64,000 bases of DNA from an uncultured Thermoanaerobaculia bacterium (GCA_964558905.1 CAZLGP010000143.1:47070-111069); one strand, 5' to 3'. Positions 8,501-54,406 are shown, numbered from the stretch's first letter. Numbers and translations: made by a program. The notes: generated from the sequence alone by a model not told the origin.

Positions 8501-8824
8501 CCCGGATCGAGGCTCGTATCCGGGGTCGAGCCACTGCAGCGCCTGCGGATCTTTCGAACGCCGGAAGTGCTCGATCGCCTTCGCTTTGTCGAAGACGGAG
8601 AGGTTCAGGCGATTGCCTTGCGGGATGTTGCGCAGCCGGTGCTGATCGAGATCGTTCGTGTCGATCGACACGAAGCTCGTCAGCGGCCGGAGTTGGCTCT
8701 CCCAGTTCGGCAGGACGGCGGCGCGGCCGGCGATCCGGTCGACGATCCGCGAACCCGTCCCGCCGAGGCCGATGAAAAGGGTAGGGGCGATGGATCCCTG
8801 GCCGCTTCGATACTCTTCGCTCAT
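5531..8824 (-). CDS. Tubulin/FtsZ-like GTPase (Tubulin_2/FtsZl1-type) with long helical/coiled-coil C-terminus
   Basis: FIGLGGTG, SIDTN, GAGQIR, TLAGGTGSG and ANTYAALKE motifs; AGGAG ribosome-binding site before ATG 8824. Confidence 0.88.
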   Translation of the reverse strand: MSEEYRSGQGSIAPTLFIGLGGTGSRIVDRIAGRAAVLPNWESQLRPLTSFVSIDTNDLDQHRLRNIPQGNRLNLSVFDKAKAIEHFRRSKDPQALQWLDPGYEPRSGKTPGAGQIRVESRLGFFIQSLEIKQRLKELIAESLRPGITWRAAEKYNVYLFCTLAGGTGSGNYLSMAYLIDAILREQNLQPRVISNLLLSTLMLDKVGPELHPDIHANTYAALKEIEYLTKLGYPKVQQAGRKYTDFVYCRDENNRAVQKVRTRPSFLSFIFDRPSHLALPDAAAAVADAAFLQIFTPIIDNMASEIDNYEKNLVELTHFPGELRNVGQGYTKNFGAFGAAAMVLPGHELLEYVSTRFAAQAIRSQITFSVDPNNPADDRARALAKLAINYSDPKFLNMADDRRERAINQSFVASVQEMARQDATQDMLDGYWYRLVESIDEGEQTGVNDKGEPVHAESQSRLIERKLEEARRDLLNRVSIKERAFVFHREGVNQYIELVNRLLEDIRGARLIVDENVRGLEAAAAEGEVIGDLKLDPIAERYLVVRLLERCERTLIPDAQQQLEKAKSRDVSNPKVRERVEREIFEALKAAAEKRGLFRGDQDFLAARDEAQAVVREIASAARAMFDAEIRLRQLRALLEFLQRRSRQYARLATRMDSLVQDLEREAERLRRGETALVPPLALRVEVFETLDEPRQRIWDRVYRALFLDDGRYISTFDRQLLASTITQELKPVVRADGTVAEKSIDQTVSDLQRALRELGRARMRPTIFGQVGQPGLDLVRGLELEATLVVGSDKLPGQSVTEAEIDDYREKKFRALAQMCGVLARVSAADTKVLDDGAKTNHTRQLIVGVGEAGRAQASKKFVDRLKDVLSTGGRQIKDSTWHDPRLIIVHDVDLPIPLYYLDAVVGEIEDAYLHTAADKNRSYHLHTDFHWEESLPNLNPKRSEIAVGWALSMLADGLGTRVITHTPGQGISWQRSGQDKPVILGNSLATALYRLGEYHRLPNVQVQLEKDLRGAHEGVTPEDELTRREELLGRIGKRLTEMELRQSDGRMTQEDALDGPILEAVREEIRRQIDWLPKAAASEDSLFGHLDVDVS

Positions 8825-8849
8825 TGCGTTCTCCTGCACCGTTCGCGCT

Positions 8850-17168: not shown

Positions 17169-18857
17169 TCAGGCGCGCGATCGGCGCCGTTTCACTAGCG
17201 CGACGACGGCCGCCAGTGCGACCGCGGCGGCCAGCCATTCCAAAACGCTCTTGCGCGTGAACGTCACTTCCGCGGGAACGAAGCGGATGTTGTAGGCCGG
17301 CCGGAGTCGTGCGCGATCGGCGATGACCTGCAGTCGATACGAACCGCTGCGGCGCGCACCTCGCAGCGTTCCCCGGAGAGTGCCGGGACCGGCCGAGCGG
17401 AGATCGAGGGCGGCATCGGCCGCACGGCCATCCCGCCAGAGCAGCGCTCGGAACAGACTCTCCTGCGATCCCATCGCGATCGCCCGCAGGTCGGCGACGC
17501 GCGCCGCTGCGTCGAAGCAGGCCACGTCGGTCTTCACGGGCAACCACGCGATTGCGCCCGAGGCGTTCACGCGGCAGTCGACGCGCTGGGCGGGAGAGAC
17601 CGAGAAGCCGGACCAGCGGTCGTGGAACACGTCCAGCCGGCGGCCGCCGTCGTCGACGGTCATCAGCTTCACGTCGGTCCAGTAGCGGCCCGGAAGCACG
17701 CACTCAGGGTCGTGCGCGCTGCGGAAGACCGCCCGCCCGAGGTCGGCGGCGCGATGCATCGTCACGGACGTGCGCTCGCCGTTCGGCAGTGCAAGGGCAA
17801 CTTGCAGCGCCAGCTTGTAACCTGGGATCTCGCGTAGCGGTTGTCCGTCCGAATCCAGCACCTGGTAGGCGAGTCTCACGCGGTCGTACTGCCGCAGCGG
17901 CTCCATCGGCGCGGGCTGCACGAGCAGTCCGCGCGGGAAGAACTGCTCCGAGACGATGCGCACGCGTGCATCGCCGTGCGACTTCCGAATGATCCAGCGG
18001 CCCGGCCGTGGCCGCGGCACGACATACGTCGCGAGGACGTCGCCGACACCCACGGCCTCCACCGCGTCCTTCCCGCTGCGGATCGGCGTGCGGCTGGCCG
18101 GAGGAAAGATCTCCACCACCGCGCCGGGCGAGCCGCGAAAGACGTCAAAAACGATCGTCTCCAGATACGGCGGTACGACGAGGGAAGCCGACGCGCGCGC
18201 CTCCGGCTCGACGGTACGTGTACCGATCCGTTCCGTGATCGCGCGGTGCGACTGCGCGAGGAACTGCGCCGGGTCGCGCGCCATCATCGAAACCGTGGTC
18301 GCGAGATCGCGCCACGTCGCGCGCTGGCGGTCGTCGAGGAGGAGCACGTCGAGCGAGATCCCCTCGACCGCGAACTTCGACGCCGCGAAGCGTTGCATGC
18401 GTTGGCGGTATGCGCGCATGTCCACGCCGCGCACGAACACCACGCCGTCGGTGAGCAAAACAATGGAACGCCGTCGCGCCGGATCGCGCGGCAGCGCGTC
18501 AAAGAGCTGCTTCGCCGTCGCGAAAGCGGCGAGCACGTTCGTCTGACCGAGGTTCACGGCAGGGAGCGCGTTGATGCGATGGCGAAGCTCTGCGAGATCG
18601 CGGGTGCACGATGCGAAGCCCACGTCGACGTGCGGAGCCGATCCGAATCCCACCACGGCGATGCGGTGATCGACGCGATTCGCGGTCGCGTTCCGCGCCA
18701 CGAGCTCGAGGGTCATCGAGAGGAACAGCGGCGCGAGGTGCCGGTCGCGGATCATGCTCGACGAGCGGTCCACGAGAAGGACCAAGTCGAGCCCTGCCTC
18801 GGCCCGCGCCGCGAGGCTCGGGAGGATCAGAAAAGCTAGAACGATGGTGCGTCTCAC
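17169..18857 (-). CDS. Secreted vWA-domain protein with C-terminal TM anchor and basic tail
   Basis: Signal peptide; DRSSSM, GQTN, LLTDG; ends WLAAAVALAAVVALVKRRRSRA. Confidence 0.85.
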   Translation of the reverse strand: MRRTIVLAFLILPSLAARAEAGLDLVLLVDRSSSMIRDRHLAPLFLSMTLELVARNATANRVDHRIAVVGFGSAPHVDVGFASCTRDLAELRHRINALPAVNLGQTNVLAAFATAKQLFDALPRDPARRRSIVLLTDGVVFVRGVDMRAYRQRMQRFAASKFAVEGISLDVLLLDDRQRATWRDLATTVSMMARDPAQFLAQSHRAITERIGTRTVEPEARASASLVVPPYLETIVFDVFRGSPGAVVEIFPPASRTPIRSGKDAVEAVGVGDVLATYVVPRPRPGRWIIRKSHGDARVRIVSEQFFPRGLLVQPAPMEPLRQYDRVRLAYQVLDSDGQPLREIPGYKLALQVALALPNGERTSVTMHRAADLGRAVFRSAHDPECVLPGRYWTDVKLMTVDDGGRRLDVFHDRWSGFSVSPAQRVDCRVNASGAIAWLPVKTDVACFDAAARVADLRAIAMGSQESLFRALLWRDGRAADAALDLRSAGPGTLRGTLRGARRSGSYRLQVIADRARLRPAYNIRFVPAEVTFTRKSVLEWLAAAVALAAVVALVKRRRSRA

Positions 18858-18890: not shown

Positions 18891-21800
18891 TTAGCGTTTC
18901 CAGGTTCCTTGCGGGTCACCGTGCAGCGTGAACGCGGCCCAGTACTTCGGATCGCTGAACCGCTCGCTCTTTTTTACCGCGAGCTGTGCCTGACGTAACG
19001 CGTCCGCCGCGTGCTCGCCTGCCGCGAGGCGGCGATAGAACTCGTTCATCAGACCCGCGGACGCCGCGTCGTCGATGTTCCAGAGCGTGGACAGCACGCC
19101 CGGCGTGCCGGCGTAAAGCAACGCCCGCGTGAGCCCCACGACTTCGTCGCCTCCGCTGCGTGCACCGATGGCGGTGCGACAGGCGGAGAGCACGACGAGA
19201 TTCACGCCGGACAGGTCGAGCGACGACAGGATCTCGTCGACGGTGAGGCTTCCGTCCTGGGAATCACCTGCGGCCAAAGCCACGCGGCTGAAGAGAGGAT
19301 TATCTGCGTCGTAGATCCCGTGCGCGGCGAGATGCACGAGATCGACTTTACCGTCCAGGCCATAGAGCAGCGACTCTCGCGCGTCTACGCCCAGGTGCGG
19401 CGTGGCGTCGAGAACTCCGGCGATTGCGTTTGCTTCGCGTTCTGCGCCCGGAAGCTTTCGCAGCCCCGGCAGAGGACTCGCCGGGTCGCCGAGGATGAGC
19501 GCAGAGCCGGTGACGGGCGTCTCCTTCGCACGTAGGAAGCGCAGCACGCTGACGCTCGGAGCGTAGATGAGCGTGTAGTCGTCGACGAGGTCGTGACCGG
19601 TCTCCTTGTTCCGCAGCGCCGCGAATGGCACGTAGTGCAGGACGCCGTGCGGCACGAGGATGAGCTTCGACGTCTTGATCTGCTTCGTGAATGGGGCGAT
19701 GAGCTGGTCGTAGGCCTGCTGCGCCGTTGCTGCCTCGCCGCAGAAACTCGGCAGCGTGACGCCGCGAGCGTCGCGATGGGAGCTGAACTGATCGGCCCAG
19801 CAGACGATGCGGCTCAGGGCCGGCGCGTCGATGGGCAGCAGCGCGTAACGGGTCTCGTTGCGGTCGATCGCCCAGGCGTGTACGTTCGTCGAGGTGACGA
19901 AGTAGCTGATGACCGTTGTGTCGGCGGAAATCTCCTGACGGACCGCGTCGATCCCCAGCGGCTCGACGGTCGTCAGCGCGGCGTACTCGGGGTTCGATGT
20001 CTTCACGCGAGTCATGACCGTGGCATACCGGTCGCGCTCGAGTTTGATGTCATCGGCGATCCGCCGCACATCGGCCGGCGCAGCGGTGTTGAGCTGCCGC
20101 TCGCGCTCGATGAGATCGGTGCGTAGTGCTTCGGCCTCCCGCACGAGACGCGGGTCGGCGCCGCGCTCGGCGTTCAGGCGGTGATTTCCGACGAGCTGCA
20201 GAAATGCGCGGGCGCGGGCGCGCTCCGCCTGCGCGAACGCTTCCTCGACCTTTCCGTCGCTCGCCAGCATCTGGACGAGCATCTCGAAGTACACCCGCCG
20301 GCTGCTGCCGAGATAGTTGGTGAGGTGTTCCTCCACCTTGACGTCGCTAGCCGAAGCCTCGAGCGTCTTCGCCGCATCCTTGAAGAAGCGCACGCCTTGG
20401 TCGCGGTTGCCTTCTCTCCAGTGAGTGACGCCGATGAGCGCGAGCAGGCCCGCGCGAATGTCGCCTCCCGGAACTGACGCCAGTGCCGCGGTGAGAGTGC
20501 GACGCGCTGCTGCATTCTCGTTGCGCGCAAGCTGCAGCCTCCCTTGCAGCATGAGCGGCATCCATCGCGCCATCTGCGGCAGATGCGTGTCGCCGGCAGT
20601 CGGCGGAGCGCCAGGCTCACCCTTGGCCAGCCGCGCAACCTCGCGGAGGATCTCCGGCATGTTTCCTAGTCCTAGCGTCTGCGTGTCCGGCAGGTCGCGG
20701 AACGCCTGGAGCGCCGCCTCGAAGTCCTCCGGCCTGCTCGGGCCGCTGCTGACGGATTCGAACGAGGCGATGAGATCGATCATCACCTCGGCGAGCTTGA
20801 AGCCGCTCTTCTTCGCCAGCGCGCGTGCATTCTCGATGGCCTGCGCCAGCGTGTCGCCGCCGCCGAGCATCATGTACACCTCGGCCAGCATGACCCACGT
20901 CGTCGATTCGAGGAGAGGCGCGTTGCTGGTCTGGTACAACGCTACGGCACTCTCCAGATATTTGGCCGCGGTGCCGTAGGTGCCCTTGAAGTAATGCAGC
21001 GTTCCGATGCCGGTGTGGAGCGATGCCTGCGCACCGGTGTCGCCGTTCGCCACCGCCATCCGCAATGCTCCTTCGAACTGCGCCAGCGCCTCTTCGGACC
21101 GGCCGGCCTTGTGCAGCAGATCGCCGCGCGTCTCGAGGATCTCCAGCTCCTTCTTCTTGTTTCCGGCGGCGCGGGCCGCGGTCAGCGCCCGCTGGTTCCA
21201 CTCCAGCCCTTCGTCGGTCCGGCCGCTGAGAATCTCGAGCTCCGCGAGCTTGCCGTACACCTTCATCTCGAGGAGAGGCTCCGGCGCGCGGATCAGGCCC
21301 TGGAGCGCTTTGGCGCCCTCGAGCGCTTTCAGGTATTGCTCGCGCGCCTCGTCCAGACGCCATTGCATCTGTCGCAACTCGCCCAGATGAGAGCCGATGG
21401 CGAAGTCGTGAAAACCGCCGAACAACTTCGATCCCGACGCAGCTTGCGTGAGCAGGGCCTCGGCTTTCGTGAGATCGCGTCCCGCATCGATGAGCGTGTG
21501 CGCGTAGGTGTCGGTGGCGATGACACTCATGAACTGCAGCAGGATCGGCTTGAAGAGTTGCGCTTGTCCGGCCATCGACTCGAGCATGTGCGTCGGCGCG
21601 CCGAAGACCGTTCCCAGAACCTCGAGCGTGTCGATCGAGAACGGCGCGGACGGGTCTGCGGCTTTGACGAGCACCGCCTGCGCGCGCTCGTGCACCGCAA
21701 TGGCGTCGTCCCATCGTCCCTCTCCGCTCTCGAGCTTCCCGCGAACGAAGAGGCTCATGGACGCGCCGAAGAAATCGCCGAGCGCTGTGTACTTGTCCTC

Positions 21801-22064
21801 AGCCTGCTGGAGCTCGGCCCGGGCGTTCGTTTCGTCGCCCAGCGTGAGGTCCGTCATGCCAAGCAACAGCCACAGTCCGGCCTCGGCGGATGCGTTCTTC
21901 TGCGCGAGGGCTTCGTCGCGCATCGCGAGAATCCGATGGCGCGCCTCGACCGCCTGTCCGGTCATGAGGAGCTGGCCGAGCTCCGCAAGCGAGTCCTTCT
22001 GCGCGGCCGCGGAGACGGAGCAAAGAAGCAACGCGGCACACGCCGCGGCGCGAAAACGAGTCAT
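18891..22064 (-). CDS. Exported TPR + CHAT-domain protease
   Basis: Signal peptide MTRFRAAACAALLLCSVSAAAQ; TPR-like helical repeats; CHAT motifs PHGVLHYVPF, HLAAHG, LSAC, STLWNIDD, YWAAF; ATGA overlap with the caspase gene. Confidence 0.9.
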   Translation of the reverse strand: MTRFRAAACAALLLCSVSAAAQKDSLAELGQLLMTGQAVEARHRILAMRDEALAQKNASAEAGLWLLLGMTDLTLGDETNARAELQQAEDKYTALGDFFGASMSLFVRGKLESGEGRWDDAIAVHERAQAVLVKAADPSAPFSIDTLEVLGTVFGAPTHMLESMAGQAQLFKPILLQFMSVIATDTYAHTLIDAGRDLTKAEALLTQAASGSKLFGGFHDFAIGSHLGELRQMQWRLDEAREQYLKALEGAKALQGLIRAPEPLLEMKVYGKLAELEILSGRTDEGLEWNQRALTAARAAGNKKKELEILETRGDLLHKAGRSEEALAQFEGALRMAVANGDTGAQASLHTGIGTLHYFKGTYGTAAKYLESAVALYQTSNAPLLESTTWVMLAEVYMMLGGGDTLAQAIENARALAKKSGFKLAEVMIDLIASFESVSSGPSRPEDFEAALQAFRDLPDTQTLGLGNMPEILREVARLAKGEPGAPPTAGDTHLPQMARWMPLMLQGRLQLARNENAAARRTLTAALASVPGGDIRAGLLALIGVTHWREGNRDQGVRFFKDAAKTLEASASDVKVEEHLTNYLGSSRRVYFEMLVQMLASDGKVEEAFAQAERARARAFLQLVGNHRLNAERGADPRLVREAEALRTDLIERERQLNTAAPADVRRIADDIKLERDRYATVMTRVKTSNPEYAALTTVEPLGIDAVRQEISADTTVISYFVTSTNVHAWAIDRNETRYALLPIDAPALSRIVCWADQFSSHRDARGVTLPSFCGEAATAQQAYDQLIAPFTKQIKTSKLILVPHGVLHYVPFAALRNKETGHDLVDDYTLIYAPSVSVLRFLRAKETPVTGSALILGDPASPLPGLRKLPGAEREANAIAGVLDATPHLGVDARESLLYGLDGKVDLVHLAAHGIYDADNPLFSRVALAAGDSQDGSLTVDEILSSLDLSGVNLVVLSACRTAIGARSGGDEVVGLTRALLYAGTPGVLSTLWNIDDAASAGLMNEFYRRLAAGEHAADALRQAQLAVKKSERFSDPKYWAAFTLHGDPQGTWKR

Positions 22065-24313
22065 GGTTGCGGTCTCCGCGGCGGAACCGAGTGAAAGGTC
22101 ACCCTCTCGAGCGACCAGTTGGTCGAGATGCGGATCGGCGGGTCGTTCGGACCGCCGCGCGTTCCCGACAGAGTGCGCGCGAGCAAACGCTCCAGTGGCG
22201 TCGGCGTCTGCCGACCCCCACTCCGCTTGTCCGCGGCTCGTACGCCGGACCACTCCAGACTCCCGAACGCAGGTAACGGCACGTCCGTCGAGAGCAGAAA
22301 GTAGGTGTCGGTTCCGTACGGCGCCGCGACGGTAAACGGCTCGGACTCGTTGAGCGGGATCTCAGCCTCCGCGTTGCGCACCGCCTTCGCGGCCGTCCGG
22401 GTCAGGGGCAGACGGTTCTCGACCGAGCCGGCGGTTGCGCGCGGAAAGAGCAGCGTGCTCGTGCCGGCGCTGTCGATGACGAACGCGTAGATGAAACGCG
22501 TGTAGACCTCGGTCGGGGCAGTGGGCTTGGCGCGCAGCACTAGATAGTGCCGGCGCTCGCCGAGGAGCACGCCGTCTTCGATGAGGACGTGATCGTCTGC
22601 TCTGCGAATGCCGAGGGTGTAATGGCTCGCGGCGCCAACCGGAGACGTCAGTTCGTGCCATCCATGAATGCGTTGCAGTCGCGTGAGTGCATCCTCGAGC
22701 AGGAACGACGATTCGGCTTTCGTCCACGCCGTGCGCACCGGCAGAGCGGCGCGGGTGGCATCGCTCGCGGAGACGTGAGGACGGATGAACGAGTATTCGG
22801 CGCCTTTCGCCGTGAGGCGTCCGGCGAGGACGTAGTCGGCGGTCTCCGGCCCCTGGGTGACCTCGATGCCTTCGACCACTGCGATTTGCGAGGCGAGCTT
22901 CGCCGGCACCGGCAGCTGCACGAAGACCGAGCTGCCGGAGCCGATTCCGTCCAGCGGCGTTGCCGTTCGCCGCGTACGGCCATCCGCGAACACTTCCCAT
23001 CCGCCGTCGCGCCAGCGGATGAGGTGCGTCGCCGTGGCCTCCGTGGGATCGGCGATCCAGGAGACGTCGTGTGCCGCTGCCGCCTCGCGCAGCTTTCGCG
23101 CGAGGCCGGAAGCGTCGTCCTCGGCGCGAGGAATCCAAATCCGCAAGGGTGTCGTAGGCGGCGGCGCCCACGCGGAGATCTCGAGCAGCGTTCCGGCGCC
23201 GAGAGGAGTGCGTGAGCGCGCCGGCGCCGAGGAGACCAGCCGGGCCACGGAGCTCGAGATTCCGGTGATCGACTCCACTTCGAGCCGCACGTCGGGATTG
23301 CCCGTCACGCGCAGCTCGCTGCCCGCGGTCACGCCGTTCGCCCAGCCGCCTCGTAGCTCGTACAATCCGTCCGGCCGGATCTTCTGGATTGCGATCACCG
23401 GGCGACGGTTCTGCCGGTCGATGCGCTTGCCGAGGAACGGACGGAGACGGACGGCGGGCGTTCCGGCAAGAACAGGATCCTGTCCCGGCCCACTGACGCT
23501 GAGTCGCGCCTCGATCCGGAGAAACGTGTCGCTCACCGGCTCGCCGCGCTCCGCGTCCTTCAGCGCGCGCGCGAGCGCCCATGTGAACGCACCACGGATC
23601 AAGCCGTCCGATGCGGGGATCTCATAGGCCCGGTCGAAATCCTGCGTTGCGGCCAGGACCAAGGCGCCACGGTTCTCGGGGTGTGGTGGGTTGGATGGAT
23701 CTGCGACATCGCGTTCATCCGGCTTCACGCCTCGAGCAACCAGCCCGGCCTCGAGACCGGCACGTGTTCCCGATCCGCTATGGCACGTGTCGAGGACGAC
23801 GGTCAGCTTCGCGCCTCGATCGAGGATCTTGTTGAAGATCTTGCGCAGATCTTTGTCCCGAATGTCCTCGGCGCCGAGGCGGGAGTCTGCGGGAACGAGA
23901 GACTCGTCGAGCTTGTCCTTCTCCGGCGAAAGCGAGTTGCTCACCTGCGAGCCGTGGCCGGAGTAGTAGAAGAGAACGACGTCGTCCTTGCGCACGCTCG
24001 CCTCGAGGCGCTTCAGCTCGCGAAGAACGCCGCTTCGCGTTGCCTGCTGATCGGTGAGGATGACCATGTCCTCGCGTTTGAAGCCGTACGTCGGGCCGAG
24101 AAGATCGCGCATCAGGTGCACGTCGTTGATCGTGCCTGCGAGGTTAGGCCACTCGCGCCCCGCCGCCGGAGCTCGCGAGCTCTCCGGCTTCAGCGTCGAG
24201 GCGCTGTAGTCGTTGATGCCGACAAGGAGGGCGTGCTTGCGCGCCGCCTCCGCATGCACCGTGAGGATCAAAAGCGTGGACAGCGCCGCGAGAACAGACT
24301 TTCGGCTTCGCAT
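22061..24313 (-). CDS. Exported caspase-family (Peptidase C14) protein with C-terminal DUF4384-like domain
   Basis: Signal peptide; ALLVGINDY, YYSGHG, LDTCHSG; C-terminal FIYAFVIDSAGTSTLLFP...PYGTDTYFLLST. Confidence 0.9.
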   Translation of the reverse strand: MRSRKSVLAALSTLLILTVHAEAARKHALLVGINDYSASTLKPESSRAPAAGREWPNLAGTINDVHLMRDLLGPTYGFKREDMVILTDQQATRSGVLRELKRLEASVRKDDVVLFYYSGHGSQVSNSLSPEKDKLDESLVPADSRLGAEDIRDKDLRKIFNKILDRGAKLTVVLDTCHSGSGTRAGLEAGLVARGVKPDERDVADPSNPPHPENRGALVLAATQDFDRAYEIPASDGLIRGAFTWALARALKDAERGEPVSDTFLRIEARLSVSGPGQDPVLAGTPAVRLRPFLGKRIDRQNRRPVIAIQKIRPDGLYELRGGWANGVTAGSELRVTGNPDVRLEVESITGISSSVARLVSSAPARSRTPLGAGTLLEISAWAPPPTTPLRIWIPRAEDDASGLARKLREAAAAHDVSWIADPTEATATHLIRWRDGGWEVFADGRTRRTATPLDGIGSGSSVFVQLPVPAKLASQIAVVEGIEVTQGPETADYVLAGRLTAKGAEYSFIRPHVSASDATRAALPVRTAWTKAESSFLLEDALTRLQRIHGWHELTSPVGAASHYTLGIRRADDHVLIEDGVLLGERRHYLVLRAKPTAPTEVYTRFIYAFVIDSAGTSTLLFPRATAGSVENRLPLTRTAAKAVRNAEAEIPLNESEPFTVAAPYGTDTYFLLSTDVPLPAFGSLEWSGVRAADKRSGGRQTPTPLERLLARTLSGTRGGPNDPPIRISTNWSLERVTFHSVPPRRPQP

Positions 24314-24351
24314 CGTGTCTGTATGGACACGAGACGAAGGGAGATGTTGTC

Positions 24352-26232
24352 ATGCAATTCCGTTGGGCACGAATGCTCTTCGTGTTCGGATGGTGCCTCG
24401 CCGGGGAAGGTGCGGCCGCTCAGAACATTCGCTCAGTGCGGCTGCCCGAAGCGGCGCCGCCGGAAATGCCGCGATCGTTCGACTCTTCGCAATCGGCTGC
24501 GATGTTCGTCGGGATCCGCGACTTCACGCACGATGCGGATCTCGAGAAAGTCCGCTATGCAGTGGACGACGCCATCGACCTTGCGTATGCAGTGTCGCTC
24601 GATCGCACGGTGCCGCTCGTGGCACCCGAGCGCATCGCCCTCGCACTCTCGGGCGAGCCACAGAAGGAAGCTTCCCGCCGCCGCCTGAAAAGGCTGACCG
24701 AACGCGGCGCGATCACCCATCCGGCTGGACAGACCGACATCGTCCAACTCATGGAGCAGCAGGCGAAGCGGGTGGGTAAGAAGGGTATTCTCATCGTCGG
24801 AATTGCGACCCACGGCTTCAGCGATGACGGCCTACATTACCTGATCGCATCGAACTCCCTGCTCCGTTATCGCGATTCTGCAGTGGCGACGCACAAGCTC
24901 CTCGACATTGCCGCTCGGTCCGGAGCGCCGCGCGCGCTCGTCTTTCTGGATGCGTGCCGGTCGCGTCTCACGGTCGGTGCGACGCGTGGCATCGACGAGA
25001 TCGACGATCGCTCGGCCGCGCCATTGGTCGATGGGCTCGCGCACTCCGCGGGCCAGATCATCTTCTACGCCGCTGCGCCAGGCGATTACGCGTACGATGA
25101 TGACAACCGACAGAACGGTGTCTTCACGGCCGCGTTGCTCGATGGCCTACATTGTGGAGCCGCGGCGGACGAAGAGGGGCTCGTCACTACGGATGCCCTC
25201 GCGGAATATGTCGGAGAGCGTGTCCGCGACTGGGTGCAGGCTCACCGCCACCGGACGGTCGCGCAGGGGATTCAGGCGACGGGAGGCAGCCGCATGCCCG
25301 TCGCGATGTGTGCTCCCTCGGCCGCGCCGACGCGTCCGCGGACCGTGCGGTTGCCGGGGCAGGCGGAGATTCAGGCTCTTCTGGATCGACTCCAGCTTTT
25401 CGCCGACGGCAGGCCTGCGACCGTGCAATCGGCAGGGACCATGTTCAGCGTCCTGAACGCCGCCGGCCTGCCGCTGTGGGGAACCGCCCTACGAGGCGAG
25501 ATCGCGCAGGCCGAGGTGCAGGACCTCGACGGCGACGGCACGAATGAGATCATCGTCGGAGTCGCAGGCGTCGGGGACGACGTCGGCAAAGTGCTGGTTT
25601 ACGACAGCGGCGGGAAGCTGCGCTGGTCGGCCGACACGACGACGACCTTCAATTACGACTCAGCGCGCAGTGGACGTCTCGCCGTGCGGGCATTCGCCAG
25701 CGGCGATCTGTATCGCACTGGCCGCCGGCAGATCGTGGTGCTCACGCTCGACTCTCAGGGGTGGTATCCATCACGGCTCTGCATCTTCGACGTCGACGGG
25801 GAATTGCTCGCTTCGTACTGGCATCCGGGGCATCTGAGTCGCGTTCTGATCGCTCAAGCTTCCGAGCATGAACCGCCGTGCATCATCGTGAGCGGCGTGA
25901 ACAACGATCTTGCCGCTCTGCTGGGCCTGGAGGGCTACGTCAGCACGGTGTTCGTGCTCGATCCCGCAGCGGTCACTGGCGAGGCTCCGCCGTACTTCGG
26001 TCGGTCGACGAAAGGATCGCAGCTCTGGTACGGCATCCTTGTTCCAACCCGGAACGTCGTCGAGCGGATGGAGATCGTCGACTTCGATCAGGACGGCCGC
26101 AATGAGATCTCGGTGTGGACGTCCTCGCGGAGCGTGTTCTATCTCTCGTTCGACGGCATGGTGCAGCGCGTGGCACGCTCGGACGGTGCGAGCGCGGGCG
26201 AGAGCGCTCGGTTCCACCTCGTGCGGGATTGA
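24352..26232 (+). CDS. Exported caspase-family protein with C-terminal FG-GAP/VCBS-like repeats
   Basis: Signal-like N-terminus; FVGIRDF, IATHG, FLDACRS, GVFTAALLDGL; DLDGDGTNEIIVG and DFDQDGRNEI; GGGAG ribosome-binding site. Confidence 0.85.
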   Translation: MQFRWARMLFVFGWCLAGEGAAAQNIRSVRLPEAAPPEMPRSFDSSQSAAMFVGIRDFTHDADLEKVRYAVDDAIDLAYAVSLDRTVPLVAPERIALALSGEPQKEASRRRLKRLTERGAITHPAGQTDIVQLMEQQAKRVGKKGILIVGIATHGFSDDGLHYLIASNSLLRYRDSAVATHKLLDIAARSGAPRALVFLDACRSRLTVGATRGIDEIDDRSAAPLVDGLAHSAGQIIFYAAAPGDYAYDDDNRQNGVFTAALLDGLHCGAAADEEGLVTTDALAEYVGERVRDWVQAHRHRTVAQGIQATGGSRMPVAMCAPSAAPTRPRTVRLPGQAEIQALLDRLQLFADGRPATVQSAGTMFSVLNAAGLPLWGTALRGEIAQAEVQDLDGDGTNEIIVGVAGVGDDVGKVLVYDSGGKLRWSADTTTTFNYDSARSGRLAVRAFASGDLYRTGRRQIVVLTLDSQGWYPSRLCIFDVDGELLASYWHPGHLSRVLIAQASEHEPPCIIVSGVNNDLAALLGLEGYVSTVFVLDPAAVTGEAPPYFGRSTKGSQLWYGILVPTRNVVERMEIVDFDQDGRNEISVWTSSRSVFYLSFDGMVQRVARSDGASAGESARFHLVRD

Positions 26233-26274
26233 GCTGTGGCCCCCCTGCAGCGGAGCCACAGCTCACGGCGAAGT

Positions 26275-27342
26275 CTAGTCCGTGATGATCGGGCAGATCG
26301 CGAGGTCATACGGACCTTTGCCTCGCGGGTTGAGGCCGAGCTGCTCGAGCAGTTCCGACGACCATCCCTGTTTCGGATGGAGAGAGTTCCAGTCGATTTG
26401 CGGCTCGGACGGGGACGGTGTCGTCGTGCGGTGCGGCACGAGGCGCGCGGCGTACGCCGGTGGCCGTTTCACGAGGTCGTAGAAGACCTGGAAGTGCTGG
26501 CCCGGCAGAGGCTCGGGAGCAGGAGCGGCGGGGTCGGGCTCCTCGTACGGCGGAAGGTTGAGGAGGGCGATCTCGACGACGCCGTTCACCGGATGCAGCT
26601 TCATCGCGCGCTGCTTCGAGCTGTCGTTGAAGTTCTGATCGATGATGTCCACGGAGTCGCCGGGCACGCGAATCTCTGCGGCCACCCAGTTCGCGACCGC
26701 CTGCGCGTACGGCGCGTCGGGCGCGTCGCCCAATGCCTTCCGGAAGTGTACGGGCAGCGCTTTGGAGTCGATCTTTACGAGCGAGTAGGTGAAGAGCTTT
26801 CCACTGCGCAGTTTGAGCCGTGCGGCGACGGTGCAGCCCGGAGGCGGTTCGGCGAGTGTGAGTGACTCCTTGAAGCCGTTCGATTCCGGCGCGATCTCGC
26901 TCAGGTCCGGAACCCAGGTGAAATCCTCCCGCTCCGCGGCTGTCCGCGGTACGGGGAGCAATGCGCCGTTGTCATCGCGACCTCGGACGCCGATTCGGAC
27001 GGCCAGCGGCTCGACCGGGCCGGCAAGCGTCAGATCGGAGCCCGACAGCGCCCACGCTCCGCCGCCCTGGAGAGCGTGGTTGAGCGAGGTTTCGGCCTGG
27101 CTGGCTGTTTTGTTGGCGAACAGATAGCCGGCGATCCCCTGTTTGTCGGGCGTCACGCACGTTCCTTCGCAGCGGCCCGCGCGCGCCAGGAGGATGGGAT
27201 AGTGATGCGGCAGTGTCGCACCGTCCGCGAGCGTGTACTCGTGCGGGGTATGGGCGAGGACGACATTCATCTCCGTGCCGTTGCTGTTCGGCACGAACGC
27301 GATGAGTCCACTGAAGAAAATTCGTAGAACGAATTCAGTCAT
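26275..27342 (-). CDS. Hypothetical protein (355 aa) coupled to the CHAT gene
   Basis: Coding-like codon usage; 6 bp downstream of the CHAT stop with AGGAG upstream; begins MTEFVLRIFFSGLIAFVP. Confidence 0.8.
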   Translation of the reverse strand: MTEFVLRIFFSGLIAFVPNSNGTEMNVVLAHTPHEYTLADGATLPHHYPILLARAGRCEGTCVTPDKQGIAGYLFANKTASQAETSLNHALQGGGAWALSGSDLTLAGPVEPLAVRIGVRGRDDNGALLPVPRTAAEREDFTWVPDLSEIAPESNGFKESLTLAEPPPGCTVAARLKLRSGKLFTYSLVKIDSKALPVHFRKALGDAPDAPYAQAVANWVAAEIRVPGDSVDIIDQNFNDSSKQRAMKLHPVNGVVEIALLNLPPYEEPDPAAPAPEPLPGQHFQVFYDLVKRPPAYAARLVPHRTTTPSPSEPQIDWNSLHPKQGWSSELLEQLGLNPRGKGPYDLAICPIITD

Positions 27343-27348
27343 GACCTC

Positions 27349-30300
27349 TTATCTCCTTCTCTCTTCCTGTCGAGGGGGAAAGGGGGATGAGGCGGATCCG
27401 ATCATCTGGAAGGCGCCCCATGCGCGCGGAGTCTTGCGTGTAGCCGCTGCGTCGCGCCACATTTCCAGTTGTGCGAGGCGCAGGGCCTCGTCGGCCGCGC
27501 GTCCGACGCTGTACTGGCGGTGAAAGCGGACCAGCAGCTCTTCGGTCTCCTTCTGTGCACTGATGTTCCAGAGCGTGCCGACCACTCCCGGCACGCCTGC
27601 GAAGACGAGCGGACGCACCAGCGGTGCGAGGCCGTCGGGCCCGACGGCCGCTCCGCCAGCGCTGCTGCAGGCAGCGAGGACGGCGACCCGCGCCTTCTCC
27701 AGCCGCAGATCGCGCAGCAGCCTCTCCGCGTCGAGCGTTCCCGCATCGTCTTCCGCCGGCGCCAGCAGAAAAAACGAGCGTGAGGGCGCATCCGGATTGG
27801 CCACGCCATGAGCGGCGATGTGAATGACACTGCTGCCGGGAACCAACGCCAGGAACCGGGGGATCGTGGCGCTTTCCCGCGTGAGTGGTTTGACGGAGAT
27901 CAGCGGCTTGTAAACGTCCGCGATGCGATCGATGCGCAAGCCGGGGACCGACTGTTCGAGGCCGCGGGCGAGGTCGTGCTGTTCGTCGAACGCCGGGTCT
28001 CCGAGGAGCAGGACGGATTCGGCGCGGCGCTTTGCAAGCTCTTCGTTCTGCAGCAGCGAGACGACGTAAAGCGTCGCACTGGCGGCGACGGAAACGAGAT
28101 GGCGCTCCATGACGTAGCGCTGGCCGTCGCTCAAAGCGGAAAACGGGAGTCCGTGCATGGCGCGGTCGGGTACGATGACGACGCGCGGTGGATTCGATTC
28201 GTCGAGCGTCTCGCCGATCTTTTCGAGCGGTGCTTTGAGCAGGGCCGCATACGGCTCGGTCAGCGCGAGCCGGAACTGTTCATCGGCCCTCGTCATCGCA
28301 TATCGCTGCAGAGACGCGGACCATTTTGCGATCGCGTCGTTTCCTACGTCGAGCGTCAGCCGTTCCGAATGGCCGCGGCGAATGATCCAGACATACGTCT
28401 TGTCGTCGAGGACACTGTACTGCAGGAGGTACGTGCGCTCCGGAAGCACGCGTTCGACGGTGCCCAGAGGTAACGGTGCGTCGTCCTGGGTAAGCCCTGA
28501 AAACGCGGGCGGAAGGATGTTCCGATGGCGGAGTGCATACAGCGTTTCGGATGCGCGCGACTCTTCCGCCTGGTTGAACGCCTGGGTGTCGTCGTGCTCG
28601 TCGACGAGCAGGCGAACGAGTTGCCGGTAGGCAACCTGACGCCGGGACAAATAGGCGTCCCACAGCGGATCGCGTTTTTGAGGCGTGCTCGACACTTCAA
28701 ACATGCCCCGCGCTTCTTCGCGCAGCGTCTGCACCGCTTCATCCACGTCCTTCAATGCCGCGTCGCGATCGGAGTCCAGACGATAAAGCTCCGCTCGTTG
28801 CAGTAGCAGCGACGCACGAAGGGACTGATAGTGAGTGTGCTGCACGTCCACAATGGCACGGCTGAGTAAGCGGATTGCCGCTGGACGATCTGTCTCCGCA
28901 ACGGCATGCGCCTCCGCCTCGGCAAGACGCGCTCGGAATCCAATCGGGATCGACGCGTCTTGAGGGTTGTCCGACGGGCCGGCCAGCCGCGCCGCCTCCG
29001 CTACGTCGGCGAGCGCACCATCACGATCGTTGAGCCGGGCGCGCATTGTGGCCCGAGCCCTGAATGCAATGCCCAGGTGACGTCGCAAACTGCGGACGAG
29101 TACCTCGTTCTCCGTCTGACTGATCTCGCCCTGGAGATACCGCACCGCCGCGTCCTGGAATCGCAGGCCGATCTCCGGGTGATTCATCTCGGCCGCGAGA
29201 CGCGCGGTCTCACCGAGAAGAAGATGGCGGGCGTTGAAGTCCGATGCGGAGCGACGGGTCAACAGGACCTGCCGCCACGTCTCGTCGATGCTGCCGATCT
29301 CGACGAACATGCCCAGCCGCCGGGATTGGACGCTGCCGAAGTTCTCGACGTCCTTGTTCTGGTCGTAGATCGCGAGTGACTTCGTATATTCGGCCAGCGC
29401 CTGAAAATGATTGCCTTGAACGGAGAGCATGAAGCCGCGGGCGCTATAGGCGCGCGCCAGGATGTACTTGTAGGAATGGCGTTCCGCCTCGCGCTCAGTA
29501 GCCTCGATCAGGCGCAGTGCCTCGACAGGACGTGATGCGGTCATCACCGTGATCAGACCGAGCATCGTGCCGAGACGCAGTGGACTACCCGCGCGCTCGA
29601 GGGCCTCCTTCGCGCGTTCGAAATCCGGCAGGGGCCTTCCGGTCAGGCCTCGCTGAATCGCGCGTGCTTCCGCAAATGCGAGATGACCCTGCTCGAGATC
29701 CGAGAGCGCCCGTGGATCGCGACAGGTTTGCACGCGATGCACGACGTCCTTCAGGTAGCGGTCGTGATTGAGCTTCTCCAGGACGTCCGCGATGGCTGAG
29801 GCGACAGCGAGCTTCTCGTCAGCCTCGCGGGTCTTGCCGGCAGCGGAAGCGACGCTCCAGTCCCGCAGAACTTCCTCCTCGACATAAGCCTGCGCGGACG
29901 AGCGAAACGGCGAGATGAGCGCCTCGAGCACGGTGGGATCAGAGCCACGCATCGCGTCCTCGAGACGGCCCACGTTCAGACGCCATTGAACTGCCTCGTC
30001 TCGTGCCCGTTGCGTGGAAAGCTCGCGCGCGTGGGCTCCGGCTTCGTCTTTCCATCCGCCAGGCATGTCGTTGGCGAGCGGCTGCCATGAGGTGATCGCC
30101 TGTTCGATGAACCCGATGCCCTCCTGGGCGAGCGCGGCATTGAAGCGAGCCTGGGGCAGCCGGGGCTCGCGCTGCAATGCCTCTTCCGCCGCCGCCAGCG
30201 CATACAGGTAGTCCGAGGGCTTGTCCTCACGGCGTGCGCGAGCCAGATGGGCGCCGGCGAGATCGCTGTACAGCTCCGCCGTCAGCTTCTCGGCCGCGAG

Positions 30301-30678
30301 CTCGCCAAGCTTCGTCACCGCCGCGTCGGTGCATGACGGCGCGTACGCGAGCAGTTCGACGGCGTCTTCGTGTGTTCGCATCATCGAGTCACAGCTACCG
30401 ATCTCAATGGACACGAATCGCCGCGGAGTGTTGGTGACTCTGCATCGGACGTTCAGAACGGTCGCGCCCTCGTCAGGCAGCGCGGCGCACGGCTGCCAGG
30501 CGCCGAACCCGCTCAGCCATGGCTCGACGACGCGTAACTGCTCTTCGCGCCCAACCGGACCCGTGTCTTCGGGCGGTGACGGGAGCTCCTTCTTCCTGCA
30601 GGCGTACAGAGAAATGCACAGAGCGACGAGGACAAACGTCCACCGCCACGGAAAGGAAAAAAAGTTCCGCAAAGCCAT
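27349..30678 (-). CDS. TPR + CHAT-domain protease with lipoprotein-like signal peptide
   Basis: VALCISLYAC|RKK lipobox-like sequence; CHAT motifs PDRAMHGLPF, HIAAHG, LAAC, GTLWNIS, WGAF; start either ATG 30678 or TTG 30696. Confidence 0.88.
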   Translation of the reverse strand: MALRNFFSFPWRWTFVLVALCISLYACRKKELPSPPEDTGPVGREEQLRVVEPWLSGFGAWQPCAALPDEGATVLNVRCRVTNTPRRFVSIEIGSCDSMMRTHEDAVELLAYAPSCTDAAVTKLGELAAEKLTAELYSDLAGAHLARARREDKPSDYLYALAAAEEALQREPRLPQARFNAALAQEGIGFIEQAITSWQPLANDMPGGWKDEAGAHARELSTQRARDEAVQWRLNVGRLEDAMRGSDPTVLEALISPFRSSAQAYVEEEVLRDWSVASAAGKTREADEKLAVASAIADVLEKLNHDRYLKDVVHRVQTCRDPRALSDLEQGHLAFAEARAIQRGLTGRPLPDFERAKEALERAGSPLRLGTMLGLITVMTASRPVEALRLIEATEREAERHSYKYILARAYSARGFMLSVQGNHFQALAEYTKSLAIYDQNKDVENFGSVQSRRLGMFVEIGSIDETWRQVLLTRRSASDFNARHLLLGETARLAAEMNHPEIGLRFQDAAVRYLQGEISQTENEVLVRSLRRHLGIAFRARATMRARLNDRDGALADVAEAARLAGPSDNPQDASIPIGFRARLAEAEAHAVAETDRPAAIRLLSRAIVDVQHTHYQSLRASLLLQRAELYRLDSDRDAALKDVDEAVQTLREEARGMFEVSSTPQKRDPLWDAYLSRRQVAYRQLVRLLVDEHDDTQAFNQAEESRASETLYALRHRNILPPAFSGLTQDDAPLPLGTVERVLPERTYLLQYSVLDDKTYVWIIRRGHSERLTLDVGNDAIAKWSASLQRYAMTRADEQFRLALTEPYAALLKAPLEKIGETLDESNPPRVVIVPDRAMHGLPFSALSDGQRYVMERHLVSVAASATLYVVSLLQNEELAKRRAESVLLLGDPAFDEQHDLARGLEQSVPGLRIDRIADVYKPLISVKPLTRESATIPRFLALVPGSSVIHIAAHGVANPDAPSRSFFLLAPAEDDAGTLDAERLLRDLRLEKARVAVLAACSSAGGAAVGPDGLAPLVRPLVFAGVPGVVGTLWNISAQKETEELLVRFHRQYSVGRAADEALRLAQLEMWRDAAATRKTPRAWGAFQMIGSASSPFPPRQEERRR

Positions 30679-30741: not shown

Positions 30742-31278
30742 ATGGGCGACGACGAGAAGCAGTTCGAGGAACTGTACAAGTTCTATCCCGGCGTCCTCGC
30801 ACTGCTGCGGCGCCTCGGATTTCCTCACGACGAAGCGGAGGAGCTCGCCCAGGAATCGTTCGTGCGTGTCTTTAGAGGCATGAAGGACTATCGCGGAGAC
30901 GCGCAGTGGGCTTATCTGGAAAAGACGGTCCGGCGCGTCGCCGCGAACGCGATCCGCGCGAAGAACGCGGGAAAGCGCCACGGGGAGACGGTCTCGGATG
31001 CAGTGCTGGCGATGCTGCCGGATTCCAGCGTGCCTTTGCCCGATGCGGGCTTGGCTCAGAGGGATGTCGTGAAGCGCGTGCGCGAAGCGATCGCAAAGCT
31101 CGAACGAATCGATCAGACGGTTCTCCTCTTGCGATTGAATGGCCGGTCGTATGACGAGATCGTAACGGGCCTCGGCATCTCGATGTCGGCCGTCAAATCG
31201 CGCCTGAACATCGCGCGCAGACGTTTGAAGGAACTGCTGGGCCATGACCCGGGGCTGCGGGGGAGTGATGATCACTAA
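30742..31278 (+). CDS. ECF-type RNA polymerase sigma factor
   Basis: Region 2 EAEELAQESFVRVF; region 4 VLLLRLNGRSYDEIVTGLGISMSAVKSRLNIARRRL. Confidence 0.9.
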   Translation: MGDDEKQFEELYKFYPGVLALLRRLGFPHDEAEELAQESFVRVFRGMKDYRGDAQWAYLEKTVRRVAANAIRAKNAGKRHGETVSDAVLAMLPDSSVPLPDAGLAQRDVVKRVREAIAKLERIDQTVLLLRLNGRSYDEIVTGLGISMSAVKSRLNIARRRLKELLGHDPGLRGSDDH

Positions 31279-32005
31279 ATCGCATTGGCAAGACGCCTAT
31301 CGTGACATTCTCGAGGACGGACGCGAGCGTATCCAGCCGCCGTCCGCGGAGAAGATCGAAGAGCTGCTGGAAGGAAAGTTGCCGGAAAAGGAGGCGGAGC
31401 TCGTTCGCGAGTCGCTCGCGTACTACCCGGAATTGCTGCGTGTCATGACGGAGCCGGTTCCCGCCGATCCGTCCAGCGTGGTAACGGATGAGGAGGTTGC
31501 GGGCGGTCTTGCGCGACTCAGACAGCGCATCCAGCGCGAGTCCGAGCCGGTGGGCATCCGCCGCCCGCGCCGTCCCTTTCGCCGCATCCTGATGCCTGCG
31601 GCCGCGGTCGTGATTCTGCTCGCAGGCGGCATTCTGGCCTACCAGCGAACACATCGGTTCGAGGGAACTTCGGTTCTGTTGTCTGCGGATGGCGAGCTTG
31701 CCGGGCCGAGCGCAGGCGGCCAGACGCCCCATCAGCTCTCCACCGAAACCGACTATCTGCTCGAGCCGGCGTTTCTGCCTGATCGTAAGTTCGCGGCCTA
31801 CAAGCTGGAGCTTCTCGACTTGTCCGGCGATGCCCCCCGCGTCGTCGAGTCCTGGACGGATGTTCGTCAGGAGCGCGACGGCTCATTCCCGGTCCCGCTG
31901 TCGACGAAAGGATTTATCGAAGGGCGATATCGACTGGTGCTCTATGGGGTGGACGACAAGCCGGTGCGACTCGCCACCTTCACAATCCGTCTCAGCCGGC
32001 GCTGA
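31268..32005 (+). CDS. Putative anti-sigma factor (N-terminal helical domain, single TM, extracytoplasmic beta-rich domain)
   Basis: Overlaps the sigma stop; TM ILMPAAAVVILLAGGILAY; position is typical of anti-sigma genes. Confidence 0.7.
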   Translation: MITKSHWQDAYRDILEDGRERIQPPSAEKIEELLEGKLPEKEAELVRESLAYYPELLRVMTEPVPADPSSVVTDEEVAGGLARLRQRIQRESEPVGIRRPRRPFRRILMPAAAVVILLAGGILAYQRTHRFEGTSVLLSADGELAGPSAGGQTPHQLSTETDYLLEPAFLPDRKFAAYKLELLDLSGDAPRVVESWTDVRQERDGSFPVPLSTKGFIEGRYRLVLYGVDDKPVRLATFTIRLSRR

Positions 32006-54349: not shown

Positions 54350-54406
54350 GGAACGATGGCGGCGATTCTAAGGACGGTTTTTCGCGAGCATCCTGCCGTC
54401 CGAAAC

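Follow-up and report, generated by a model that had tools for sequence, protein, structure and literature searches.

We analyzed a 64,000-nucleotide stretch of DNA from an uncultured Thermoanaerobaculia bacterium (GCA_964558905.1, CAZLGP010000143.1:47070-111069; hereafter the window), in which positions 18891-30672 code for two CHAT and two Peptidase_C14 proteins recognized by Pfam. The cluster is a conserved, undescribed sigma-factor gene module in a group of soil Acidobacteria. Its invariant core is a sigma factor gene of the extracytoplasmic function (ECF) type and a putative anti-sigma gene, divergent from genes for a CHAT protease (CHAT_E), a 355-aa protein (p355) and a metacaspase-like protease (caspB). 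The other two proteases, caspC and CHAT_A, are optional. We put at about even chances the idea that this is an envelope signalling module, a split form of the Myxococcus xanthus anti-sigma factor DdvA, in which periplasmic CHAT_E cuts the adjacent anti-sigma factor. The proposal builds on the domain identities, catalytic dyads, signal-peptide features, homology to fused forms and synteny that we observed.

The gene map was made by open reading frame (ORF) calling guided by the G+C content of third codon positions, together with Pfam; the source is a metagenome-assembled genome. The window has a G+C content of 63-69%, and its affiliation to Thermoanaerobaculia, Acidobacteriota, is that given by the names of the homologues. 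The genes under study, with their predicted features, are:

18891-22064 (-): CHAT_A, with a predicted Sec signal peptide, a TPR_12/MalT-like TPR array and a CHAT domain (H915/C962); CHAT 232 bits, TPR_12 62 bits
22061-24313 (-): caspB, with a predicted signal peptide, a metacaspase-like C14 domain (H120/C177) and ~450 aa of beta-rich C-terminal domains; Peptidase_C14 84.7 bits
24352-26232 (+): caspC, with a predicted signal peptide, a C14 domain (H154/C202) and a C-terminal FG-GAP-like beta-propeller region; Peptidase_C14 33.7 bits
26275-27342 (-): p355, a leaderless all-beta protein of 355 aa; begins 6 nt past the CHAT_E stop
27349-30672 (-): CHAT_E, with a predicted lipoprotein-type signal (Cys25), a helical scaffold and a CHAT domain (H955/C1002); CHAT 176.7 bits
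30673-30741: divergent intergenic region of 69 bp, with a conserved block of ~40 bp
30742-31278 (+): ECF sigma factor, 178 aa; Sigma70_r2, Sigma70_r4_2 and Sigma70_ECF above cut-offs
31268-32005 (+): putative single-pass anti-sigma factor, 245 aa; assigned by position, topology and motif

For the conservation census, p355 was used as the marker and 77 loci were collected from species-representative Thermoanaerobaculia/Acidobacteriota genomes. The hidden Markov models were made here from few sequences, and each denominator counts the loci whose flanks were long enough:

CHAT gene ending 5-42 nt upstream of p355: 73/73 loci
Divergent ECF sigma gene: 64/64 loci
Anti-sigma gene: 63/63 loci
C14 gene downstream of p355, within 3.6 kb and on the same strand: 59/63 loci
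caspC-type gene: 22/54 loci
CHAT_A-type gene: 12/53 loci
von Willebrand factor A (vWA) gene: 13/51 loci
All four proteases: 5/53 loci

Four loci had no downstream C14 gene; in three of these it lies past the anti-sigma gene, and the fourth has a caspC-type gene. At the loci with 77%, 57% and 53% identity (L001-L003), the anti-sigma and sigma genes are divergent from CHAT_E, p355, caspB, CHAT_A and vWA, in this order, as in the window. In other families of the phylum, with p355 ~24% identical, the sigma gene is again divergent from CHAT and p355, and a zf-HC2 anti-sigma factor is present in two of three. The same genome carries a second five-gene core on contig C70:4876-13238, composed of anti-sigma, sigma, CHAT, p355 and C14 genes with 29-45% identity. 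This copy has a small lipoprotein gene between p355 and the caspase gene, and no CHAT_A, vWA or Tubulin_2 gene follows.

CHAT_E was compared with the other CHAT proteins of the genome. Elsewhere in the genome there are three to six DdvA-like proteins, which consist of a zf-HC2 anti-sigma domain, a transmembrane (TM) helix, a ~900-aa scaffold and a CHAT domain. The candidates are:

C208:943-4212 (-), C186:14709-17912 (-) and C41:13482-16772 (+): fused architecture with zf-HC2, which the window lacks
C228:16091-19402 (-), C228:24772-28020 (+) and C145:14202-17360 (+): further DdvA-like candidates

These CHAT paralogues have an HxxxCxxC anti-sigma motif and a TM helix; Pfam zf-HC2 is above the cut-off in three and just below it in two, and one fused paralogue has a Sigma70_r2 gene directly upstream. 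CHAT_E aligns over ~1000 aa, with 25-27% identity, with the paralogues of this architecture on C208, C228, C41 and C145. The alignment spans the membrane anchor to the C-terminus, and a motif just past the anchor (EPRLxGF..W) is found in both. In these fusions the CHAT body has to lie in the periplasm, as in the solved structure of DdvA. Because CHAT_E is homologous over its full length to this periplasmic part, its body is predicted to be periplasmic independently of any signal-peptide heuristics.

The periplasmic TPR-CHAT structure of M. xanthus DdvA was solved in 2024, and DdvA-like proteins had been reported before in Myxococcota and one Comamonas only (PMC11506125). Like DdvA, the system described here would have a periplasmic helical scaffold with a CHAT domain, an intact His/Cys dyad, an adjoining ECF sigma gene (at every locus of the census with enough flank) and a single-pass anti-sigma factor presumed to be subject to regulated proteolysis. 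Unlike DdvA, CHAT_E has no zinc anti-sigma domain and begins with a predicted lipoprotein signal peptide. The CHAT body would stand by itself as a lipoprotein, and the anti-sigma factor would be a small protein of its own, with no zinc motif. A further difference is that p355 is always present together with an exported metacaspase-like protease, with no CBASS (cyclic oligonucleotide-based antiphage signalling) or CRISPR cargo. We drew the likeness through the fused paralogues of the same genome, which have the architecture of DdvA. From these sequence comparisons, we describe CHAT_E as a DdvA-type periplasmic module whose gene is separate from that of its anti-sigma factor.

The initial annotation, made from the sequence of the window, had proposed four clan-CD proteases with intact dyads in 12 kb. 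Pfam scores and dyad alignments agree with this, and by these measures the four genes are genuine clan-CD peptidases with intact catalytic dyads. All four domains exceed the Pfam gathering scores. The CHAT matches (PF12770) of CHAT_A and CHAT_E both extend over the full model. When CHAT_E was searched with phmmer against PDB sequences, there was no match; Csx29 and separase were reached by a profile. In this profile of nine CHAT sequences, the invariant AAHG and (S/A)AC motifs fall on HG and AC in Csx29 and separase, which places H955/C1002 of CHAT_E and H915/C962 of CHAT_A on the catalytic positions.

For caspB, the Peptidase_C14 (PF00656) score compares with a cut-off of 21.4 bits. Its motifs, YSGHG and DTCHSG, place H120 and C177 on the YSGHG and D(S)CHSG motifs of Yca1 and AtMC9, and in the alignment C177 is the position mutated in the C147G/A and C276A crystal entries. 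The AlphaFold model (predicted local distance difference test, pLDDT, 81.5) matched AtMC9, AtMC4 and GSU0716 in Foldseek at an E value of 1e-14. The segment DESLVPAD of caspB aligns with the metacaspase pocket (DDVIYPVD in Yca1, DEAIVPCD in AtMC9), and this acidic S1 pocket motif suggests Arg/Lys specificity. In the linker past the catalytic Cys, R184 and R194 are invariant. Thus caspB resembles metacaspases and orthocaspases (Yca1, AtMC4/9, GSU0716) in predicted fold, dyad and DE(S/T)xxPxD pocket motif. Unlike them, it has ~450 aa of extra beta-rich domains and a fixed place in a sigma-linked module, and it is known here from sequence and model.

The family assignment of caspC is thinner than that of caspB. 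Its Peptidase_C14 score is measured against the same cut-off of 21.4 bits, H154 lies in an ATHG motif within the Pfam match, and C202 (LDAC) aligns with caspB C177 (LDTC) in a weak hhalign match of low probability. It reached 60 bits against the caspase_w_EACC1 model, whose cut-off is 140, and has no sequence relative in PDB. A caspC paralogue is present on contig C60 of the same genome. None of the proteases, nor p355 or the anti-sigma factor, reached the cut-off of any PADLOC or NCBIfam family.

Signal peptides were judged by heuristics for the n-, h- and c-regions and by conservation across orthologues. By these heuristics, three proteases have Sec-type signal peptides and one, CHAT_E, has a lipoprotein-type signal peptide. 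All four N-termini combine two to three basic residues with 11-17 uncharged residues in a row and with small residues at positions -3 and -1 (AxA-type). CHAT_E has LYA|C25 ahead of a Pro-rich linker, in keeping with the lipobox rule. Of the CHAT_E orthologues or paralogues, five of seven conform to this rule, and the lipobox occurs in the forms LYAC, AFAC, TFAC, TTAC and AIAC. Among the orthologues, the character of the signal peptides is kept and the letters vary. The sigma and anti-sigma factors, used as controls, had no signal peptide by the same heuristics. A permissive regular-expression census of signal peptides, made over all 77 loci, was discarded as non-discriminating, since it marked the N-terminus of p355 as well (73/76). 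Of the 17 CHAT genes of the genome, about 14 begin in one of three ways: signal peptide, anchor, or anti-sigma domain plus TM helix. Given the Sec-type and lipoprotein-type signal peptides, the four proteases are predicted to be active in the periplasm or the envelope of this diderm bacterium. An extracytoplasmic location, as first annotated, is thus consistent with the signal-peptide heuristics, the conservation in orthologues and the topology of the fused paralogues. The initial annotation had set export against the mostly cytoplasmic roles of bacterial caspase and CHAT proteases in defence and cell death, but export is not without precedent: DdvA is one case (PMC11506125), and ~15% of the metacaspases of prokaryotes carry an N-terminal TM helix or signal peptide by prediction (PMC3501461).

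The start of CHAT_E is most likely TTG at 30672, with AGGAG 6 nt upstream; its orthologues use the same start. For CHAT_A, the start was corrected from 22253 to 22064, where an ATGA overlap with the caspB stop indicates translational coupling of both genes. Since caspC is convergent to p355 and divergent from caspB, the core is split into separate transcription units in the window. The gaps are 42 bp between caspC and p355 (26233-26274) and 38 bp between caspC and caspB (24314-24351). At loci without caspC, p355 and caspB lie on the same strand, 40-450 bp apart.

The sigma factor matched TIGR02937 with 57.4 bits, against a cut-off of 42.9. The putative anti-sigma gene overlaps the end of the sigma gene. 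Its product would have ~105 aa in the cytoplasm, one TM helix (residues 115-133 of the 253-aa ORF) and a beta-rich periplasmic domain of ~120 aa. It contains a motif resembling the anti-sigma domain, EELLEGKLPEKEAELVRESLAYYPELL, without zinc ligands. The protein had no Pfam match, and the NCBIfam anti-sigma model gave an E value of 0.0025 only.

In the 69-bp region between the sigma and CHAT_E genes, the block TTTCCTATATCATGGCCTAACTCATTCATTCGGTAAACA is kept in the window and in L001, L002 and L003 despite 53-77% protein identity. The block contains a sigma-70-like TTTACC-17-TATGAT facing the sigma gene, which is not above the shuffle background; a scan for terminators and promoters also gave nothing above this background. 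A second element, CGAAnCGCGTATCTTA / CCGCGAAnCGCGTATCTTA, lies 8-12 nt 5' of the CHAT start codon at 24 stand-alone-type loci (L037-L100). The form CCGCGAAnCGCGTATCTTA occurs 25 times in 1.19 Mb, with 24 occurrences confirmed at the sigma/CHAT_E site and none upstream of caspB. It is also present on contig C70 (~6190-6215), whereas the subfamily of the window has a different conserved block. A gapped-dyad search of the sigma/CHAT_E intergenic regions gave no convincing ECF-type -35/-10 pair.

The family of p355 has 954 superfamily representatives at 50% clustering and no match in Pfam, NCBIfam or PADLOC. Wherever checked, its members adjoin CHAT genes. The AlphaFold2 model of p355 is mostly beta, with a pLDDT of 93.5 and a predicted template modelling score (pTM) of 0.93, and Foldseek against PDB and BFVD returned no fold relative (best E value 2e-3, template modelling score ~0.1). 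Residues C58, C62, C350, H47 and H283 are invariant. We considered and rejected a signal peptide at the N-terminus: this part hardly varies, the basic n-region is missing in deep relatives (MPFTLDVIFTGL...), and residues 3-12 form a core beta strand of a hairpin in the model, with pLDDT above 93. As p355 has no signal peptide by this reasoning, it should be cytoplasmic. It is therefore hard to see as a periplasmic substrate, although the initial annotation had named it as a cleavage candidate.

In staphopain/staphostatin operons, the gene for a secreted cysteine protease is followed by the gene for a leaderless beta-barrel inhibitor, and staphostatins guard staphopains. CHAT_E and p355 have a similar arrangement, in which the gene of a leaderless all-beta protein lies directly 3' of the gene of an apparently exported cysteine protease. 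A difference is that p355 is three times the size of a staphostatin, and no fold relative of it was detected. That p355 may be an inhibitor is pure conjecture by this analogy. Two further roles in the cytoplasm are no more than possible: p355 may guard or chaperone the protease, or it may take part in signalling with the sigma factor.

Beyond the core, the window continues on the minus strand into a further group of genes:

17169-18857 (-): vWA protein with a predicted N-terminal signal peptide and a C-terminal TM anchor (residues 537-555); VWA_2 and VWA matches
5531-8860 (-): Tubulin_2 (FtsZl1) gene; Tubulin_2 138 bits

Past this vWA gene, the minus-strand string contains more membrane and vWA proteins, the Tubulin_2 gene and a helicase-like gene with an MZB domain. 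The same-strand string thus runs from caspB to Tubulin_2, and orthologous loci also reach Tubulin_2 downstream, even with other intervening genes. At a 53% identical orthologous locus (L023:7676-20894), other genes take the place of those between vWA and Tubulin_2; they code for a Ser/Thr kinase, a Gly-zipper protein, an HSP70 of 944 aa, a GrpE-like protein and unknown products. At this locus, Tubulin_2 bears a DZR zinc-ribbon. The vWA gene follows CHAT_A in L001-L003. A coiled-coil lipoprotein of 178-185 aa is encoded between the two in L002 (15411-15947) and L003 (15345-15902); its gene is absent in the window, where the gap is 33 bp. CHAT_A and the membrane-anchored vWA protein are a second optional block, which in this lineage joins the core to the FtsZl1/vWA envelope operon. 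As in the FtsZl1/vWA operons described by Makarova & Koonin (2010), Tubulin_2, several vWA proteins and envelope-associated partners are found here in one string. The described operons have vWA, OmpA, kinase and GTPase partners, with no mention of caspase, CHAT or ECF sigma (PMC2875224). Unlike them, the string here has caspase, CHAT and ECF sigma genes at its 5' end.

To the right of 32 kb, the window contains housekeeping genes (GTP cyclohydrolase I, enolase, Lhr, DnaB and urocanase). The DnaB gene, 51665-54367 (-), is split by an intein with a LAGLIDADG homing-endonuclease domain.

Under the proposed split-DdvA mechanism, CHAT_E would be a separately encoded, signal-activated site-1 protease of the neighbouring anti-sigma factor. 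Clipping of the anti-sigma ectodomain would lead to intramembrane proteolysis and free the sigma factor. The freed sigma factor would raise the expression of the module and, in this lineage, of the FtsZl1/vWA operon. caspB and the optional proteases may carry out limited proteolysis of periplasmic targets, with vWA ectodomains as candidates. We infer all of these cleavage events and the direction of control. The same logic operates in DegS-RseA-RseP-RpoE, where a periplasmic site-1 protease cuts a single-pass anti-sigma factor and an ECF sigma factor is released. Unlike CHAT_E, DegS is a PDZ serine protease and not a clan-CD cysteine protease; for our module this logic is proposed only. CHAT proteases connected to ECF sigma factors have precedents in DdvA/DdvS (PMC11506125) and in Csx29-Csx30-CASP-sigma (PMC10028731). 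A search of full-text literature, with subscription literature and supplementary tables outside it, found the CHAT domain tied to an ECF sigma factor only in the DdvA and craspase papers.

Several points weigh against this mechanism. The anti-sigma factor is identified by position, topology and motif, and the signal peptides of the proteases are heuristic assignments. If the CHAT_E lipoprotein were sorted to the outer membrane, it would be hindered in reaching the small anti-sigma ectodomain. p355 is the tightest partner of CHAT_E, appears leaderless and is left unexplained by the mechanism. Autoproteolysis is unproven even for DdvA. No ECF-type promoter common to CHAT_E and caspB was found upstream of them. 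Finally, a sigma/anti-sigma pair beside the operon fits the proteases as output equally well.

This last alternative, in which the proteases are output and not input, we hold to be possible, short of probable. Here the sigma pair would sense something else, and the exported proteases and p355 would be its regulon, acting as effectors of envelope remodelling or defence, for example by processing vWA ectodomains or by degrading foreign periplasmic proteins. The divergent layout of sigma gene and operon is what usually marks a sigma factor and the genes that it targets, the conserved intergenic elements are specific to the sigma/CHAT_E junction, and the downstream cargo is variable. However, two points suggest that CHAT_E has a role in the switch: it shares homology with the sensor-protease part of anti-sigma factors of the fused kind, and the co-occurrence of CHAT_E, sigma and anti-sigma is invariant even where p355 is ~24% identical. 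Input and output can both be true, as positive feedback.

The initial annotation favoured an extracytoplasmic proteolytic cascade, with TPR, DUF4384-like and FG-GAP domains as sensors. Taken as a true zymogen cascade, with each clan-CD protease activating its successor, we consider this unlikely. Up to four intact, apparently exported proteases are encoded per locus, caspB has invariant Arg residues past its catalytic Cys as in self-processing metacaspases, and caspB appears to be translationally coupled to CHAT_A. However, only two of the four proteases are invariant; with the other two optional, a four-step chain cannot be the conserved mechanism. There is also no cleavage-site evidence, and nothing shows one protease activating another. 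As for the sensor domains, the TPR array of CHAT_A is clear and lies N-terminal to the CHAT domain, whereas DUF4384 (14.9 bits, cut-off 27) and FG-GAP_3 (25.9, cut-off 26.9) are both below the Pfam thresholds. In CHAT_E, TPR_2 was found at an E value of 0.047 only, and the N-terminal part resembles a helical scaffold by homology to the DdvA-like paralogues. The idea that the proteases work as a unit with neighbouring genes is supported: of the partners named for the cascade, the anti-sigma factor, p355 and vWA, the first two are invariant in the census, and vWA is not.

A more elaborate relay in two tiers we regard as rather a long shot. A lipoprotein CHAT would sense an envelope or invader signal and activate an exported metacaspase; both would destroy the anti-sigma factor, cut vWA receptor ectodomains and switch on a tubulin-like cytoskeletal machine, with p355, a new fold, as cytoplasmic guard or chaperone. 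If true, bacteria would have in it an extracytoplasmic equivalent of the initiator/executioner logic of caspases.

It is very improbable that the genes belong to a cytoplasmic cell-death or defence system (craspase, CATRA or the vWA-MoxR ternary system) whose N-terminal hydrophobic stretches were misread. Csx29 is the best solved relative of the CHAT domains, and there are weak PADLOC matches to caspase, TPR and BovA models. In the craspase system (PMC10028731), as here, a TPR-CHAT protease is coupled to an ECF sigma factor, there through cleavage of the inhibitor Csx30, which releases CASP-sigma; the Csx29 CHAT dyad aligns with the CHAT dyads here. Unlike our system, craspase is cytoplasmic, RNA-guided and dependent on Cas7-11. 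Craspase was rejected, with no cas genes among the Pfam-scanned ORFs of the window and a score of 42.6 bits against the Csx29 model NF041237, whose cut-off is 300. The vWA-MoxR ternary system and CATRA were rejected as well, with no MoxR or STAND match in the same ORFs and a vWA protein that has a predicted signal peptide and a C-terminal TM anchor. Moreover, there is conservation of signal peptides and lipoboxes, and the topology is set by the fused paralogues.

A chance neighbourhood of paralogues in a CHAT-rich genome (17-18 CHAT and 6 C14 genes in 7.38 Mb) is refuted by the synteny census, since dozens of species-level genomes preserve the gene order and orientation, and this is a stronger argument than our own scan-statistic estimate, by which four such genes in 12 kb have an expectation of ~1.5e-4.

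CHAT proteases have been tied to ECF sigma control twice before, in craspase in the cytoplasm and in DdvA in the periplasm. Whether the DdvA CHAT domain is a site-1 protease could so far not be tested, because the signal for it is not known, and protease and presumed substrate are parts of one fusion protein. The module described here is a natural split version, with protease and putative anti-sigma factor on separate polypeptides at 77 or more loci of rich sequence variation. Co-expression can therefore test the cleavage hypothesis directly, and co-variation analysis can be applied to it. DdvA-like proteins also occur outside Myxococcota. Exported bacterial metacaspases gain a defined genetic context, and the uncharacterised FtsZl1/vWA systems gain a protease/sigma front end. 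The work also brings to light the 355-aa family, with its many representatives, a confident model with no fold relative, and a constant pairing with a CHAT protease.

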